A DNA stretch of 45,255 nt from Kiritimatiellia bacterium (GTDB taxonomy: Bacteria > Verrucomicrobiota > Kiritimatiellia > RFP12 > UBA3636): positions 1 to 45,255 of the forward strand of contig JAFPUX010000366.1 in assembly GCA_017413145.1 (NCBI GenBank), given 5' to 3'. Position numbers and translations under genes: made by a program. Below the pieces are notes generated by a model, which was not told where the DNA came from, ran no database searches, and worked only from the letters and a program-made list of their open reading frames with translations. How positions within the stretch are numbered: the stretch's first letter is position 1; the number at the start of each line of letters is the position of its first letter. This document shows positions 5,573 to 41,321 of the stretch, piece after piece.

Positions 5573-5785
5573 GATTGCTTCGCAACGCAATCTTGGCGGA
5601 AACGCTTCCCGCATCGCACGCCGCTTCGCGGCTATGCGGAGAAGCGTTTCCGCCCGCGTCGGTGGGGCGAGCCGCCGCGCCGCCCCTGCGGCTCGCACGG
5701 AGTGCTCGCCCCACCGGAGAGTCCCGGCGAAGACCGGTTCCGCCGGCCGCGAAGCGGCCTTGCGGGGCGGACCGGTTTTCGCCGG
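5573..5785 (+). other. Highly structured intergenic segment: one short and three long nested hairpins (candidate ncRNA, REP-like element or RNA processing/stability element)
   Basis: Short hairpin: GATTGC/GCAATC at 5573-5592. Hairpin 1 (5595-5654): perfect 14-bp stem GGCGGAAACGCTTC/GAAGCGTTTCCGCC enclosing CCGCAT/ATGCGG and GCCGC/GCGGC. Hairpin 2 (5660-5716): 13-bp stem CGGTGGGGCGAGC/GCTCGCCCCACCG with an inner GCCGC/GCGGC. Hairpin 3 (5724-5785): ~20-bp stem with one bulge, enclosing GGCCGC-GAA-GCGGCC. Confidence 0.6.
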
Positions 5786-9546: not shown

Positions 9547-10427
9547 ACACGACGATGACTACGACGACCAACGGCGAGCCGAGGCTCGGCTTCTGCTCCT
9601 GGCTGCTGCGCGGGCGGAGCCTGCCCGACGCAATCGCCTTCCTGGCGGAGGCGGGGTACCGCTCCATCGCGTTCCTGCAGGACGTGATGGGCGTCCAGGG
9701 GAGCGAGCGCGAGGAGGCCGCGGCGGCGATTCGCGAGCTCGGCTTCTCGATCACCTACCACGGGTGCGTGCAGTGGTGGGTGGGCCAGGACCAGCGCATC
9801 GACGATGCGAAGCTTCAGGCCATGTTCGAGGACGTCCGCTGGTGGCACGAGCACGCGGGCGGGGTCGTGTCGTGCTGCTCGGACCGCGTCGCCGGCCCGA
9901 CCGCGGAAGGGCCCAACCGCCGCTACCTCGAAGGCGAGACGCGCCGTCTCGCGCAATGCGAGCGCGACTTCTTCGAGCCGCTCGGCATCGGCTACGGCAT
10001 CGAGAACTGCTTCCACCGCTACTGCTTCCACGAGGAAATGCAGGGGCTCAGGGACTCGGTCCGCGGCCCGGCGCCGCATCTCGGCTCGATCCTCGACGTC
10101 GGCCACGCGTACGTCCACGTGAGCACCGACCGGACGGACGGCATGTCCTTCGAGGAGTACGTTGACCGCATCCCGGTCCGCATCTGGGAGCTGCACATCA
10201 CGGACAACCACGGATCGTCCGACGAGCACCTCGCCCCCGGCGAGGGCACGCTCGACTTCCGCGCGCTGCGCCGCGCGATGGACCGCCGCGGCTTCGACGG
10301 CCCGATCTCGATGGAGGTCTGCAAGGACGCCGCGCACCGCGACAACTGCTTCGACCTCACGGACCCCGCGCACCGCGACCGGATCCGGCGCATGCGCGAC
10401 GACTTCCTCCGCCTCTACGTGCCCTGA
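9543..10427 (+). CDS. Sugar-phosphate isomerase/epimerase-like protein (xylose-isomerase-like TIM barrel), copy 1
   Basis: ATG 9543 overlaps the upstream stop (ATGA). Hallmarks: GIENCF, LDVGHAYVH, WELHITDNHGSSDEHLAPGEGTLDF. It differs at 22 of 282 alignable residues (hand count) from the paralogue at 37625..38497(-). The long N-terminal part of track ORF 5976..10427 is an off-frame artefact. Confidence 0.85.
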   Translation: MNTTMTTTTNGEPRLGFCSWLLRGRSLPDAIAFLAEAGYRSIAFLQDVMGVQGSEREEAAAAIRELGFSITYHGCVQWWVGQDQRIDDAKLQAMFEDVRWWHEHAGGVVSCCSDRVAGPTAEGPNRRYLEGETRRLAQCERDFFEPLGIGYGIENCFHRYCFHEEMQGLRDSVRGPAPHLGSILDVGHAYVHVSTDRTDGMSFEEYVDRIPVRIWELHITDNHGSSDEHLAPGEGTLDFRALRRAMDRRGFDGPISMEVCKDAAHRDNCFDLTDPAHRDRIRRMRDDFLRLYVP

Positions 10428-10431
10428 AGCG

Positions 10432-11964
10432 ATGAACGTCCCGAACCCCGATGCCGTCGAGCTCGCGCCGCTGCCGGCGCCGGCCGACTTCGAAAGCGAC
10501 ATGGACCGCCCCGTCCCGTTCGACGCGGGGACGGCGGTTCTCGTGGACTGCCCCGATCCCGCCGCCGCGCCTTGGCTCGCGCACCATTTCGCCGACTGGT
10601 TCGGCGACCAGGCGCCGAAGGTGTCGCCCAATGTTGCCAATGTGGAAATATTGCCGATTCCAATTGCCAATTCCCAATCGGAAACATTGAATACTGGCAA
10701 CACTGGCAACATTGGCAACACTGGCAACACTGGCTCGGACGAAGCCTACGCCGTCTCCGCCGACGCCTCCGGCGTCCGGATCTCGGCCCGCTCCCTCGCG
10801 GGCGTCCGCTGGGCCGCCTATTCGCTGCGCCAGCTCGCGATCGCCCGGCGCGGGACGTTCCGCACCGACGGGCGCGTGCTGCCGACGCTGCGCATCTCCG
10901 ACGCCCCGCGCCTCCCGTTCCGCGCCGTGCACCTGTGCTGGTTTCCCGACACGCGACCCGCGCAGATCGAGCGCGCGATCCGCCTCGCGGCGCTACTGAA
11001 GTTCAACGCAGCGATTCTCGAGCCGTGGGGGACGTTCCGCAGCGCGCGGCATCCGTGGTTCGGGTGGCCGGACGCCCCCGCCACGCCGGAGGAGCTCGCC
11101 CGCCTCGCCGCGATCGGACGCGACCTGGGCGTCGCGCTCGTGCCGCAGCTCAATGTCCTCGGCCACGCCTCCTCGTCGCGCTCGTGCTCGCTCAAGCACG
11201 CGGCGCTCGACCTGCACCCCGAGTACGAGCCGCTCTTCGAACCGGGCGGCTGGAACTGGTGCCTCTCCAATCCCGAGGCGCGGCGCGTCCTGCGCGAGCT
11301 CGTGGGCGAGCTGCACGAGGCCTGCGGGCGCCCGCCGTTCTTCCACCTCGGCTGCGACGAGGCGCAGCCGCCGTCCTGCCCCGAGTGCCGCCGGCGCCCC
11401 TACGCGGAACTCGTGGGCGAGCACATCGCGGAGCTCGCCGCCTTCGTGCGCGAGCGCGGCGCCCGGGCGATGGTCTGGCACGACATGCTCCTCGACCGGG
11501 ACGATCCGCGCTGGGCGGGATTCATCGCTTGCGGATCGCCGGAGACCGCGAAGCTGGCGGACGCGCTGCCGCGGGACGTCGTGATCTGCGACTGGCAGTA
11601 CGGCAACCCCGACCCCGCGCGCCCGCGCGACGACTGGCCGACGTTCGCGCACTTCCTCGGGAAGGGCTTCGACGTGGCGGGGTGCCCGTGGCTCAACTTC
11701 GGCGCCATGGAGCCGATGGCGGACTTCCTCGCGTCGCACGGCGGCCTCGGCCTCGTCGCCACCACCTGGCACCATCTGCACGGCACGGACTGGCGGGATG
11801 CGTTCCGCACCGCCGCCTGCGCCGCGTGGGGGACGCCGCCCCCGCCCGTCGCGCCGCAGTTCGACACCGCCTTCGCGGCCGTCCTGCGCCTCGCCGGCCT
11901 CGACGCAGGCGTCTGCGACTACCGCGACACCGGCCTCGACGAGGAGCAGGTCCACGCGCCATGA
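10432..11964 (+). CDS. GH20-like beta-N-acetylhexosaminidase family protein (cytoplasmic; carries an atypical low-GC insertion)
   Basis: ATG 10432 lies 4 nt after the previous stop. GH20b-type N-domain: EAYAVSADASGVRISARSLAGVRWAAYSLRQL. Further motifs: ISDAPRLPFRAVHLC and catalytic-type HLGCDEA. No signal peptide. Confidence 0.75.
   Translation: MNVPNPDAVELAPLPAPADFESDMDRPVPFDAGTAVLVDCPDPAAAPWLAHHFADWFGDQAPKVSPNVANVEILPIPIANSQSETLNTGNTGNIGNTGNTGSDEAYAVSADASGVRISARSLAGVRWAAYSLRQLAIARRGTFRTDGRVLPTLRISDAPRLPFRAVHLCWFPDTRPAQIERAIRLAALLKFNAAILEPWGTFRSARHPWFGWPDAPATPEELARLAAIGRDLGVALVPQLNVLGHASSSRSCSLKHAALDLHPEYEPLFEPGGWNWCLSNPEARRVLRELVGELHEACGRPPFFHLGCDEAQPPSCPECRRRPYAELVGEHIAELAAFVRERGARAMVWHDMLLDRDDPRWAGFIACGSPETAKLADALPRDVVICDWQYGNPDPARPRDDWPTFAHFLGKGFDVAGCPWLNFGAMEPMADFLASHGGLGLVATTWHHLHGTDWRDAFRTAACAAWGTPPPPVAPQFDTAFAAVLRLAGLDAGVCDYRDTGLDEEQVHAP
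10627..10734 (+). repeat. Low-GC in-frame insertion with TTGCC/GGCAA inverted arms and 4.5 tandem copies of TGGCAACAY
   Basis: It encodes PNVANVEILPIPIANSQSETLNTGNTGNIGNTGNTG using mostly A/T-ending codons. Left arm: GTTGCCAAT, ATTGCCGAT, ATTGCCAAT (10633-10671). Right arm: TGGCAACAC, TGGCAACAT, TGGCAACAC, TGGCAACAC, TGGC (10695-10734). The 12-nt string TGTTGCCAATGT has its exact reverse complement in the right arm. Confidence 0.8.
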
Positions 11965-17402: not shown

Positions 17403-17512
17403 TTGACCGCGCGCGCGCGCTATGGTAGCCTTTATTCCCGAAGGGGCGCCCCGGACGGGGCGCACCCCTTTACAAGGCCCGACAATCACCCGATTGACGC
17501 ATGGAGACTCCC
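17403..17512 (+). promoter_or_regulatory. Conserved promoter + leader, type A copy 2
   Basis: TTGACC at 17403-17408, a 17-nt spacer (GCGCGCGCGCGC...), then TGG-TAGCCT (17426-17431). Hairpin GCGCCCC-GGAC-GGGGCGC within 17443-17468. Box CAATC-ACCC-GATTG at 17483-17496. GGAGA SD. ATGAAA at 17513. Confidence 0.55.
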
Positions 17513-26528: not shown

Positions 26529-26629
26529 GGACTGTTTTCCGTTTGTGTCAAATCAATCGTGTGACTTTTTGGGAAACGAAAGTCTCACGACGCCGTCCGA
26601 TTCTATCCCAATCCCCCCGTCCGGCGCAA
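26529..26629 (-). promoter_or_regulatory. Conserved promoter + leader, type B copy 1
   Basis: On the minus strand: TTGCGC (26629-26624), an 18-nt spacer, TAGAAT (26605-26600), a GAGAC/GTTTC-type hairpin, the box AGTCACACGATTG (26554-26567 region), and ATGAAACATCCGCT. It aligns almost base for base with 41221-41321. Confidence 0.55.
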
Positions 26630-26663: not shown

Positions 26664-26774
26664 TTGACACGCGCGCGCGAATTTTGATAGGTTTCCGCTT
26701 GAAGGGACGCCCCGGGGTCGGGGGTCCTTTTTTCGCAACTCCGGCAATCATCCGATTGATACAAGGAGATTCGC
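26664..26774 (+). promoter_or_regulatory. Conserved promoter + leader, type A copy 3
   Basis: TTGACA at 26664-26669, an 18-nt spacer (CGCGCGCGCG...), then TGA-TAGGTT (26688-26693). Hairpin plus T6 at 26705-26733. Box CAATC-ATCC-GATTG at 26745-26758. AAGGAGA SD. ATGAAA at 26775. Confidence 0.55.
26705..26733 (+). terminator. Intrinsic-terminator-like hairpin + T6 inside leader A3 (candidate attenuator)
   Basis: GGAC(G)CCCC pairs with GGGGGTCC across a 6-nt loop (26705-26727), followed immediately by TTTTTT (26728-33). The upstream neighbour is divergent, so this cannot be that gene's terminator. Confidence 0.5.
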
Positions 26775-33912: not shown

Positions 33913-34034
33913 GGACGACAAGACGACGGGATGACGAGACGACGGGATGTCGAGACGACGGGATGTCGTCCCCCTCGTCCCGAAGGGTCCAGGGGGCGAT
34001 CTTGTCGTCCCGTCGTCTGGTCGTCTCGTCGTCC
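33913..34034. repeat. Long imperfect palindrome containing three tandem 16-mers and an inverted copy
   Basis: AAGACGACGGGATGAC (33920-33935) is followed by GAGACGACGGGATGTC twice (33936-33951 and 33952-33967). Central hairpin CCCCCT...AGGGGG at 33970-33996. Inverted copy GTCGTCCCGTCGTCT at 34004-34018. The outer arms 33913-33927 and 34020-34034 are complementary at 14 of 15 positions. The element lies between stop 33878 and promoter A4. Confidence 0.7.
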
Positions 34035-34064
34035 TGCTCGGCAAGCTGCATTGCCAACGCGCGC

Positions 34065-34174
34065 TTGACACGCGCGCGCGAAATTTGGTAGTTTTATCCC
34101 CGAAGGGGTGCCCCGGAAGGGACGAACCTCTTTTCAAGGCCCGACAATCACACGATTGACACAAGGAGATTCCC
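34065..34174 (+). promoter_or_regulatory. Conserved promoter + leader, type A copy 4
   Basis: TTGACA at 34065-34070, an 18-nt spacer (CGCGCGCGCG...), then TGG-TAGTTT (34089-34094). Alternating C4/G4 tracts and a T4 stretch (34097-34134). Box CAATC-ACAC-GATTG at 34145-34158. AAGGAGA SD. ATGAAA at 34175. Confidence 0.55.
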
Positions 34175-36430
34175 ATGAAACTGCGGTCCCTCCTCGCCGC
34201 AACGGCACTCTTGTCTCTTCTCGCGCCCGCCGCGCGGGCGGAGGAAGTCACGCTTCCCGCCGGCTACGTGCCCGTCAACCTCGTCACGAACGTCGGCGGC
34301 TCCGCCTCCAGCGACACGAAATGCCTGAACAGCGACAGCGGGTATGGCGTCGCGAAAGCGTTCGACAAGAAATATTACTCCGACAACACGCGCTGGATCG
34401 GACATGGTTCGACGTTTCCGCAACGCGCCGTCTGGACCTTCCCGGAGGCGACTGTCGTGGACGCGGTTCGCATCTACAACGCGAATTACCGCGGTGCCAA
34501 CCAGTCCCCGTCCGATTTCACGATCGCCGGGTCGAACGACGGGACGACTTGGACGACGCTCGATTCGGAATCCGGCGTGACCGGATGGAGCGCCAACCAG
34601 TTCCGGACCTTCGGGTTCGAGAACGAAACGCCCTACTTGAACTACCGTCTGGAAGTGACCGCAGTCCAGGACATGACGGGGTCCGACGGCAAGCGCATGA
34701 CGATCACGGAAATCGAACTCTATCGCGTCCACCAGGCGTCTTTCGAAGTCGCTCCATCCGGTTCGCCGACGGTCGGACTCGACACGTTTTCCACGGACTG
34801 GAACCTGACCGTGGAAGAAGGCGCGACGGCCGCCGCCGGAATCGTCTGGAGCACCGACGGAACGTTTGCGACCGCGGCGACGAATTCGCTCGGAACCAGT
34901 CTCGCGGCCGGCACGCACACGGCGTCCCTTTCCGGGCTTGAGCCGGACGCGACGTACTGGTGGAAGATCTACGCCGTCCGGGGAAACGAAACCAAAGAGA
35001 CGATCGCGTATTCTTTCAAGACGATTGGCGCGCCGGTGTTTGGCAATGCGACCACGACCGTGAACGGCGAGTCCGCCACGTTCACCGTTTCCATCGCGGA
35101 GGCGGCGCTGACCAACACGCTTTCCACTTCCGTTTCCGTGTTCTACGGGGCGGACGGCGAAACCTGGACCGAACTTCCGCTCGGCGCGTCCGCGACGGCG
35201 GCCACGCTGACCGGATCCGCCGGAAACCTCGGCTACGGCGTGACGTATCGGTGGTTTGCGCGGGCGTCGGCGACCATGGCGAACTCCCGCGTCCTTTCCG
35301 TGGACACGGCCACAAACTCCTTCACGACGCTTTGGGGCGGCGACATGTATGTCGACGCCGCGGCCGCGAACGCGACTGCACCCTACTCGACTCCCGAGAC
35401 GGCCGCGAAGACCATCGCCGCCGCGCTCTCGCTCGCCATGGACGGCGCGAGGATTTTTGTCGCGCCAGGCCGATACAACATTTCCACGCCGCTCTCCTTG
35501 ACGAAGGCCGTCGAACTGGTCGGCGACGACGACGATCCGTCCCTCGTCGTCGTGGCGAACACCGCCGGCGTCTCATGGGGAAACACGAACCATAGGTGCA
35601 TTCTGGTGAACCATGCGAACGCCCGGGTTTCCGGTATGACGTTCGAGAACGGAAAGGACTACGGCAACGGTGGAAACGTCCGGATCGACACGAACGGCGG
35701 CATGGTCACCAATTGCATCCTCTCCGGCGGATTCACGCGGGAAGGCAACGATTCCGCCGGCGCGAACGTGGCGATCACGGGCCCCGGACTCGTGACGCAT
35801 TGCCGGATTTTCGGCGGCAGCCAGAACAACTGCAGCGGCTGTGATCGCGCGTCCTCGGTCTATCTCGAGCACGCGGATGCCCGAATCGAGAACTGCCTCG
35901 TCAGCGGATTCCAGGGGGCGACGGTTTCCACCCAGCCCACCGTGGGCTGCGCCGGAATCCTCGTCAACAAGGGGGCCGCCGTCAACTGCACCGTCGCGGA
36001 CTGCACGTCCCCCTACACGACGGACATCGGCTTCGCAGGCATCCAGCTGTGGGCGAACGGCATCGCAATAAACTGCGTATCCGTTGACAATGTCGACAGC
36101 AACGGCACAGTCCGGGCGTTCGCGCCTTCGCAGGTCTCCCGCACGTCGCACTGCGCGTTCGACGCGATCGCCGGCGAGGCGGTCGTTCCGGAGGGCATGG
36201 TGGGCGGCGTCGTCGGCACGCCAGAGTCGTTCTTCCGGAACTACGCCTCGTCCGACATCCGCCTGAAATACCAGCCGAAGACCGGCGGCCCGCTCTACGA
36301 CGCGGGCGCGGACTACGAACCGATGGCGCTCTACGATCTCTCGGGCGAGCAGAAGCGCAAGGTCGGAGCGCACGTCGACATCGGCTGCTACGAAGGCAAC
36401 GCCTCGGGATTCGTCCTTCTCGTGAAATAA
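34175..36430 (+). CDS. Secreted discoidin (F5/8 type C)-like + Fn3/SVFYG modules + right-handed beta-helix protein with choice-of-anchor-Q-like end
   Basis: Signal peptide MKLRSLLAATALLSLLAPAARA. Discoidin-like jelly roll: ...AVWTFPEATVVDAVRIYNANY...ITEIELYR. SVFYG module: SVSVFYGADGETWTELPLG. PbH1-like repeats: MVTNCILSGG, IENCLVSGF, AVNCTVADC. C-terminus: HVDIGCYEGNASGFVLLVK. Confidence 0.85.
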   Translation: MKLRSLLAATALLSLLAPAARAEEVTLPAGYVPVNLVTNVGGSASSDTKCLNSDSGYGVAKAFDKKYYSDNTRWIGHGSTFPQRAVWTFPEATVVDAVRIYNANYRGANQSPSDFTIAGSNDGTTWTTLDSESGVTGWSANQFRTFGFENETPYLNYRLEVTAVQDMTGSDGKRMTITEIELYRVHQASFEVAPSGSPTVGLDTFSTDWNLTVEEGATAAAGIVWSTDGTFATAATNSLGTSLAAGTHTASLSGLEPDATYWWKIYAVRGNETKETIAYSFKTIGAPVFGNATTTVNGESATFTVSIAEAALTNTLSTSVSVFYGADGETWTELPLGASATAATLTGSAGNLGYGVTYRWFARASATMANSRVLSVDTATNSFTTLWGGDMYVDAAAANATAPYSTPETAAKTIAAALSLAMDGARIFVAPGRYNISTPLSLTKAVELVGDDDDPSLVVVANTAGVSWGNTNHRCILVNHANARVSGMTFENGKDYGNGGNVRIDTNGGMVTNCILSGGFTREGNDSAGANVAITGPGLVTHCRIFGGSQNNCSGCDRASSVYLEHADARIENCLVSGFQGATVSTQPTVGCAGILVNKGAAVNCTVADCTSPYTTDIGFAGIQLWANGIAINCVSVDNVDSNGTVRAFAPSQVSRTSHCAFDAIAGEAVVPEGMVGGVVGTPESFFRNYASSDIRLKYQPKTGGPLYDAGADYEPMALYDLSGEQKRKVGAHVDIGCYEGNASGFVLLVK

Positions 36431-41236: not shown

Positions 41237-41321
41237 AATTGGGATAGAATCGTACGGCGTCGGGAGACTTTCGTTTCCCAAGAAGTCACACGATTGACTT
41301 GACACAAACGGAGAACAGCCC
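41221..41321 (+). promoter_or_regulatory. Conserved promoter + leader, type B copy 2
   Basis: TTGCGC at 41221-41226, an 18-nt spacer, TAGAAT at 41245-41250. Hairpin GGGAGAC-TTTC-GTTTCCC at 41262-41279. Box AAGTCACACGATTG at 41283-41296. ATGAAACATCCGCT at 41322. Confidence 0.55.

Follow-up and report, generated by a model that had tools for sequence, protein, structure and literature searches.

We analysed a stretch of 45,255 nucleotides (nt) from a Kiritimatiellia bacterium (GenBank assembly GCA_017413145.1, contig JAFPUX010000366.1, positions 1 to 45,255 of the forward strand), hereafter called the window, whose GC content is 70%. An intact gene on its plus strand, at 10432..11964, encodes a protein of 510 amino acids (aa) and carries within its reading frame a short, low-GC, hairpin-forming insert, which is the subject of this work. 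The host gene belongs to glycoside hydrolase family 20 (GH20), as its domains, its catalytic residues and its fold show. In the translation, Pfam places Glyco_hydro_20b (PF02838) at residues 15-158 and Glyco_hydro_20 (PF00728) at residues 218-357, both above the cut-offs, and the aspartate-glutamate pair of the HxGxDE motif (D309/E310) is invariant in 39 orthologues. Moreover, the AlphaFold2 (AF2) model of the protein (predicted local distance difference test, pLDDT, 81; predicted template modelling score, pTM, 0.86) matched solved GH20 structures in Foldseek at E about 1e-23. The protein has hundreds of relatives, the sole named match being from Kiritimatiellia.

The insert occupies 10630..10731 (102 nt, delimited by nhmmer, alignment and GC; no strand is assigned to it or to its internal parts) and reads as NVANVEILPIPIANSQSETLNTGNTGNIGNTGNT. 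The AAT at 10630 shares the frame of the ATG at 10432, and the low-GC stretch encodes SPNVANVEILPIPIANSQSETLNTGNTGNIGNTGNTGSD directly before the residues EAYAV. An earlier, sequence-only reading of this DNA had described a low-GC, in-frame insertion with A/T-ending codons, and the composition bears this out: GC and GC at third codon positions (GC3) are 0.43 and 0.47 in the element against 0.74 and 0.94 in the remaining gene, and 100-nt windows fall to 0.49-0.50 at the stretch, compared with 0.67-0.83 around it. It is the sole intragenic 60-nt low-GC stretch of such kind in the window, with a minimum GC of 0.38. The extent given earlier, 10627-10734, takes in one flanking codon too many on each side of the element proper. 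On the plus strand, the left junction is formed by the codons TCG CCC (SP; 10624..10629), which correspond to GCC CCC (AP) of the empty allele according to an alignment with L204, L006 and L009 (L and P numbers are our labels for DNA stretches and proteins, respectively), and the right junction in the alignment is GGC TCG GAC (10732..10740). Homology to close relatives resumes at 10738-10741 (megablast to L204, L006, L007, L008 and L011).

The left terminal arm, AATGTTGCCAATGTGGAAATATTGCCGA (10630..10657), is the part of the repeat family described below that is conserved most strongly; its pairing with the right arm is seen in the inverted repeats I1, I2 and I5. The central block (10650..10683; Tandem Repeats Finder, TRF, and family alignment) consists of 6-7-nt (N)CCAAT/ATTGCCA sub-repeats, among them a 7-nt ATTGCCA array of 4.3 copies at 10650-10678, and ends in CCAATCGG, a one-base-degenerate form of the family's central palindrome CCAATTGG. 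The right arm is expanded to a 9-nt tandem array, ACTGGCAAC, which encodes (NTG)n and which TRF delimits at 10693..10734 (93% matches, score 77), with four TGGCAA units at 10695, 10704, 10713 and 10722. The TTGCC motifs, of the form TTGCC(A/G)AT (TTGCCAAT at 10634, TTGCCGAT at 10651 and TTGCCAAT at 10664), and the tandem nonamers are present as had been claimed, the array being counted as 4.7 copies. The two halves, which the sequence-only reading had recognized as inverted and able to form a hairpin, contain 16-nt arms of 94% complementarity (10628-10643 against 10700-10715 and 10709-10724), and they fold better than shuffled sequences: the minimum free energy is -39.5 kcal/mol as RNA (z -2.9, equalled by 2 of 200 shuffles) and -23.9 kcal/mol as DNA (z -3.3).

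The element is not confined to this gene. A pattern derived from the shared 5' core and contained in the left arm, ATGTTGCCNNTNNNNAAATNTTGCCNA (19 specified bases), was scanned against the GTDB species set (596 Gb) and matched at least 118 stretches, where about 4.3 would be expected by chance. The matches listed include about 45 metagenome-assembled genomes (MAGs), with up to ten contigs per assembly (10 contigs with a match each in RUG14821 and RUG10619). Two of the listed matches, in one Bacteroidetes and one Brocadia MAG, are attributable to chance, and the remaining ones lie in ruminant-gut MAGs labelled, except for three, as Kiritimatiellae, Verrucomicrobia or Lentisphaerae. With a family hidden Markov model (HMM), 161 distinct copies were found in the 782 kb collected around the matches. 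The modal length is 98 nt, and the consensus, AATGTTGCCAATGTGaAAATGTTGCCAATtgCCAATgcCcAttcCCAATTGGaaAtTGGcAAcaTTGGAAcTGGCAACAcTggCaACAtTGGCAACATT, has the architecture AATGTTGCCAATGTGRAAATGTTGCCAAT-(NNCCAAT)2-3-CCAATTGG-(ATTGG/ACTGGCAAC)n-CACATTGGCAACATT. This consensus is an almost perfect palindrome: the two ends, AATGTTGCCAATGTG... and ...CACATTGGCAACATT, pair in each of 33 aligned copies, and none of its six frames is interrupted by a stop codon. The window element aligns over its full length with 32 copies taken from other genomes and is recovered by an HMM built from other genomes (nhmmer; HMM 1-96 = 10630-10728, E=1e-20, envelope to 10735). The longest run of units spaced by 9 nt is 1 in 45 copies, 2 in 16, 3 in 12 and 5 in 2.

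We consider it highly probable that 10630-10731 is one copy of a non-coding, hairpin-forming family of about 98 nt that is multicopy in rumen and gut Kiritimatiellia. The many copies, together with the empty sites described below, make the earlier suggestion of a foreign or transposon-like element tolerated in frame essentially right. No Rfam family was found on the element, the only match, which lies elsewhere, being at chance level (E=0.58). In the literature searched we found no description of the sequence, of the encoded peptide or of palindromic or miniature transposable repeats in Kiritimatiellia, and the family is apparently undescribed and of a kind that resembles the palindromic elements of Rickettsia.

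Many copies lie inside genes. For 59 of them, an open reading frame (ORF) runs through the copy and extends 60 codons or more beyond both of its ends, and at least 27 belong to ORFs that are 450 aa or longer and have a high GC3. The hosts, which were identified by the Pfam domains on both sides of a copy, are unrelated to one another. They comprise the glutamate synthase large subunit GltB (2 copies in L097), the carbamoyl-phosphate synthase large subunit CarB (2 sites, in L155 and L090), an MmeI-type restriction-modification enzyme of RUG14821 (L140 695-4495) with 5 copies, of which all those checked are between domains, its homologue in L111 (3 copies), and, with one copy each, a type ISP enzyme (L117), a DUF5107/TPR protein (L203) and a GDSL lipase (L191). 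Intragenic copies are mostly situated at domain boundaries. The encoded peptides have the form NVANV[E/K]MLPIANSNSQLETGNIGTGN..., also described as NVANV[E/K]MLP...GN[I/T]G, in the same frame as the window copy, and this NVANV frame is used at 14 of 20 distinct sites (copies grouped by hand; binomial P=9e-4 against one third).

A peptide-profile search of a set of 5.8 billion proteins returned only ORFs of 35-70 aa and missed the window protein, and it is hence uninformative on long hosts; an exhaustive search with the 40-aa window peptide, too short a query, gave only 4 matches at E<=0.001. The profile matched dozens of 35-70-aa 'hypothetical proteins' (P0121-P0175, e.g. P0133), some named Kiritimatiellae, which, judged by their sequences, are probably small ORFs called on element copies and hence annotation noise.

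The history of the GH20 site can be followed in its orthologues, among which the segment between QAPKV and EAYAV ranges from 12 to 45 residues. Most have a GC-rich loop of 13 residues, xAGxxGLxLRxGD, which we take as the ancestral state. The window's NVANVEMLPIPIANSQ core is shared only by P0010, P0013 and P0016 (66-71% identical outside the loop), whose DNA has the same low-GC sequence, starting at the same codon as in the window. In a neighbour-joining tree built without the loop, these four element-bearing lineages are separate and each is sister to genes with other loops, so that the element type is polyphyletic on the GH20 gene tree. The number of nonamers also differs, from 4.7 in the window to about 3 in L001, about 1 in L003 and none in L004, L010 and L012. 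The nearest relatives at the DNA level (L204 and L006-L011, 88-93% identical) give alignments that stop and restart at the element edges. The L204 site reads GCC CCC GGC CCC GCG GCG CTC CCG CTG CGC GCG GGC GAC; in the window, the element is preceded by TCG CCC and followed by TCG GAC. It thus takes the place of about 30 nt of the 13-codon loop, and no duplication is visible.

Empty sites are found even in near-identical alleles. The 90% identity cluster of the window protein contains six sequences with the identical element loop (among them MBQ3810794.1, P0179, which is recorded on 15 contigs), three sequences with APGPAALPLRAGD that are 86-87% identical in amino acids outside the loop, and one with yet another insert. 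The clusters of P0010 and P0013 are likewise polymorphic for the loop, and P0016 and P0038, 96.4% identical outside it, carry the palindrome and an octamer array, respectively. Within the window protein's cluster, P0183 is almost identical to the window protein over residues 19-347, element included, and has in its C-terminal third substitutions typical of the empty alleles; this mosaic of filled and empty types implies that filled and empty alleles recombine. A long recombination tract into the window allele was also considered and found no support, since over 150-300 nt the flanks resemble other element-bearing alleles only as much as the gene does on average; only the 18 nt directly upstream co-vary with the element (GDQAPKV against GAQAPRV). 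A separate observation concerns the 5' end of the GH20 gene in L069, where the signal peptide takes its ATG and initial residues (MATLKLATLAISTT...) from a right-arm fragment at 814-858 (HMM 55-99, E=4.9e-6) that may have been recruited as the N-terminus.

In the protein, the insert lies in the non-catalytic N-terminal GH20b domain, and the catalytic D309/E310 pair is conserved. It had been placed in a loop just before a GH20b strand, and the AF2 model agrees: residues 67-99 are coil between the strands at 63-66 and 106-111, and pLDDT is below 50 for residues 81-99. The insert is predicted from this model to be a disordered surface loop. Most likely it has no effect on the GH20 protein, and the element is probably a tolerated passenger of the gene.

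Other explanations of the insert were weighed against these data. A functional cis-element within the coding sequence is one candidate, in view of the significant stability of the fold (z about -3): either the hairpin or the TTGCCAAT/TGGCAAC array could act as a protein-binding site, as a regulatory mRNA structure that affects pausing or stability, or as an internal operator. The 49-nt core in L003 and L004, 90% identical to the window where the flanks are 71-76% identical, and the half-copies often found just upstream of start codons in other genomes would be in line with such a role. However, this sequence is shared by more than 100 unrelated sites, in coding as well as intergenic DNA; most orthologues, and even alleles of 86-87% identity, lack it, and it has no Rfam match; in L001 the core is no better conserved than its flanks (0.78 and 0.77), and the arms do not covary and are simply invariant. 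We therefore judge a cis-regulatory function improbable, and the protein-binding array proposed by the sequence-only reading has gained no specific support. The loop might instead have grown in place, by slippage and template switching that yield a quasi-palindrome, with no mobile or dispersed source. It is indeed hypervariable in length and sequence, many of its variants are hairpin-forming or tandem-repetitive, and local expansion is the best explanation of the nonamer array as such; but the whole 100 nt matches a family present at unrelated loci in about 45 genomes among the matches listed, and other loop variants also have copies elsewhere. A local origin is contradicted for the element as a whole and survives only for the nonamer expansion; as an account of the insert it is very improbable.

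Hardly any weight is left for an ancient linker or an assembly chimera, the two possibilities by which the sequence-only reading could have been overturned. The lack of length polymorphism of the nonamers in six sequences of the same lineage would suit either of them. Nevertheless, no orthologue carries the segment at normal composition, as an old linker would have it, and the segment is low in GC in every lineage that has it. The flanks are collinear with relatives up to the junctions, and the recovery of the identical insertion in several independent assemblies speaks against an artefact of assembly. The nonamer slippage proposed earlier is plausible, as 1 to 5 units occur among family copies, but copy-number variation is absent from the six sequences of the window's own lineage, which all have the same array.

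Some observations do weigh against a dispersed family as the source of the insert. The left-junction codon is identical in four GH20 lineages, which random transposition would explain less well than a strong target preference or a single old insertion that recombination has spread. Target-site duplications of 3 nt or more were not found, the flank matches being equal to those of a shuffled control, and no transposase family stood out as an autonomous partner among 107 ORFs beside copies (Pfam, 8-kb stretches). Of the source genome, the 45-kb window shows only one copy with nhmmer, which limits any claim on the abundance and activity of the family there. That the 5' arm does not vary among the aligned copies is in part a product of the search pattern; likewise, no covariation was seen in the hairpin, where the arms are invariant, an invariance to which both the search pattern and the end filter contribute and which makes the comparison uninformative. 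Finally, that the insert is translated with the gene is inferred from the conservation of the frame.

Within the family interpretation, the GH20 loop may be a true hotspot, in which unrelated hairpin and tandem-repeat families (the 98-nt palindrome, the 7-8-nt arrays and the GC-rich CTCCC-hairpins) replace one another like cassettes. We put this forward tentatively and regard it as rather unlikely. It is suggested by alleles 93-96% identical that carry wholly different inserts, by the start of the palindrome at the same codon in four lineages, and by the 436 kb of GH20-centred contigs, in which every copy found by the HMM is in or at the GH20 gene, namely in the loop with the single exception of L069. 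If true, it would point to a hairpin- or structure-directed mechanism of insertion or exchange, possibly linked to the AAA_14-DUF4143 ATPases described below; random transposition followed by selection is the alternative to such a mechanism. The loop is one of two things, a hotspot or the place of a single old insertion that recombination has handed on, and the shared left junction fits both.

The term 'MITE-like' (miniature inverted-repeat transposable element) used by the sequence-only reading is justified by the inverted ends, the small size and the lack of transposase coding, but a strict MITE is unproven, as neither a target-site duplication nor an autonomous partner was found in the loci collected. 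Direct repeats of 2-5 nt at the copy ends were not in excess beyond the element's own AT termini, and a 2-bp AT duplication is indistinguishable from the terminal repeat. On reading the copy list we saw no inverted half-copies flanking an insert of 0.6-4 kb; the two half-copies in L171 face away from each other. A palindromic repeat element like those of Rickettsia is the safer label. Genes for AAA_14-DUF4143 ATPases are over-represented beside copies, with 7 of 107 adjoining ORFs against 1 of 140 controls at a distance of over 1 kb; the contrast looks marginal and is a lead only, as it is not backed by formal statistics and orthologues are among the adjacent genes. Such genes lie beside copies at L101 3231-4580, L109 4604-5821, L138 3452-4810, L148 1465-2904 and L176 2615-3949, that of L148 being located between two copies in direct orientation. 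In RUG14492 (L109 4171-6052; L194 6307-6701; L154; L161), half-elements head tandem units of about 200 nt that read ...CCAATATGGCC...TTCTACA...CATACGCACCGTAATCTCATTT..., and in L109 these units are present on both sides of the ATPase gene.

These data suggest how the GH20 insert might have arisen and been kept. A copy came to lie in frame in the GH20b loop, where it replaced about 30 nt of the ancestral loop. The element would be transcribed and translated with the gene as a disordered surface loop rich in Asn, Gly and Thr, and would be tolerated rather than useful, a selfish passenger comparable to the Rickettsia elements. Copies in general would survive inside genes because the consensus is free of stop codons in all six frames, and selection would retain only those insertions that lie in a loop or in a linker between domains and whose reading frame is the hydrophilic one, NVANV...GNIG. 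The (NTG)n run may have grown locally from the 9-nt sub-repeat in the right arm, through slippage or unequal exchange. The spread of the family could depend on a transposase acting in trans, on a hairpin-directed nuclease or on homologous recombination between alleles.

Several classes of bacterial repeats invite comparison. Repetitive extragenic palindromes (REP) and the hairpins formed by pairs of them (REPIN) are mobilised by RAYT transposases (REP-associated tyrosine transposases), measure 20-40 nt and are essentially extragenic. The Kiritimatiellia family resembles them in forming hairpins, in having no target-site duplications and in the replacement of one type by another at orthologous sites, but at least 27 of its copies are intragenic. 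Heterocystous cyanobacteria contain heptanucleotide short tandemly repeated repetitive (STRR) sequences, to which the companion intergenic arrays (GAGCTTR)n and (CAACYTTT)n of related genomes, not the palindrome itself, are similar in kind, although the sequences differ. Among the bacterial MITEs, enterobacterial repetitive intergenic consensus (ERIC) and Correia elements were considered for comparison. For in-frame insertions or internal tandem repeats, the closest points of reference are the QMITEs of Coxiella (PMC5896051) and a MITE of Porphyromonas gingivalis that contains a minisatellite (PMC4596501). The present family shares with MITEs the terminal inverted repeats, small size, lack of a transposase, many copies, occasional translational fusions and variable internal tandem repeats, whereas it has no detected target-site duplication and no identified parent insertion sequence.

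The nearest parallel in behaviour is offered by the Rickettsia palindromic elements (RPEs), which a review presents as palindromic, non-autonomous multicopy repeats of about 100-150 bp that are often inserted in frame in unrelated housekeeping genes, where they encode a conserved peptide at places tolerated by the fold (Ogata et al., 2000, as reviewed in PMC10969869). The Kiritimatiellia palindrome, too, is inserted without a frameshift into protein genes that are unrelated, and the frame in which it is read is open; the likeness is functional only. In contrast to RPE hosts, which are reduced intracellular alphaproteobacteria, its hosts are free-living or gut bacteria of the Planctomycetes-Verrucomicrobia-Chlamydiae (PVC) group with 55-70% GC. 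The interior of the element is made of expanding 6-9-nt sub-repeats, and the GH20 copy stands in place of ancestral loop codons, at a site that other repeat families also occupy. By this analogy of behaviour, the family may be said to work like RPEs, and we do not file it as a member of them.

Other repeats accompany the palindrome. In related genomes there are intergenic 7-8-nt arrays, (GAGCTTR)n, (AGTTGTG)n and (AACTTTY)n, at L029 1212-1277, 2024-2068, 4469-4538 and 6473-6553, L015 5382-5451, L039 5085-5202, L016 235-283 and L009 1019-1110. Such arrays also occur in frame in the GH20 loop of other orthologues, where they read LSTLNFQLSTS or SSKLQALSS, and in L192 and L127 they flank copies of the palindrome, the octamer array that distinguishes P0038 from P0016 being among them. 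The loop of still other orthologues holds GC-rich hairpins, and the alternative loop repeats have further copies elsewhere on the same contigs. A second dispersed family, in which CTCCC comes after a GC-rich hairpin, GGNCGCG-N6-CGCGNCC, occurs at numerous loci (L033 3349-3373 and 3582-3606; L032 2023-2047; L090 7347-7407; L095, L132, L135, L141, L162 and L172) and fills the GH20 loop in L031, L033, L040 and L057 (reading ...VAAADGTEPVPPEGD); its stems are different between copies and still complementary.

In the window itself, an intergenic hairpin at 5660-5716 has perfect 13-nt arms, CGGTGGGGCGAGC and GCTCGCCCCACCG, and its 29-nt unit (5689-5717) is 93% identical to the GC-rich GH20-loop insert of the nearest relatives, which L006, L007, L008 and L011 have in one or two tandem copies. 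A large imperfect palindrome of 8- and 16-nt tandem repeats, GACGACGG... facing ...CCGTCGTC, lies at 33914-34036, with arms of 37 nt that are 81% complementary; it is intergenic, upstream of an ORF that starts at 34175. The inverted-repeat motif CAATC-N3-CGATTGA is present four times (2709-2723, 17483-17497, 26745-26759 and 34145-34159) against 0.18 expected, with looser variants near 26540 (minus strand) and near 41290. Those at 2709, 26745 and 34145 are in low-GC intergenic DNA, a few tens of bases upstream of ATGAAAC starts, and an AAGGAG ribosome-binding site follows those at 26745 and 34145, which makes the motif a candidate for a shared operator or hairpin of 5' untranslated regions. As for its immediate surroundings, the GH20 gene is preceded on the same strand by an ORF of 1483 aa that contains an AP_endonuc_2 domain and stops at 10427, and it is followed on the same strand by a major facilitator superfamily (MFS) transporter gene from 12152.

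Selfish DNA in frame within genes has been a textbook oddity of Rickettsia. The presence of in-frame repeats in GltB, CarB and restriction enzymes of high-GC gut Kiritimatiellia indicates that this behaviour is not limited to reduced intracellular genomes. The family accounts for one type of low-GC 'anomalies' in these genomes and probably for a set of spurious small ORFs, and its inserts inflate the apparent protein diversity in metagenomic catalogues, where 90% clusters mix filled and empty alleles. For the GH20 enzyme of the window the insert would most likely be neutral, and the intragenic copies as a whole constitute a natural map of the permissive loops and linkers in the host proteins.

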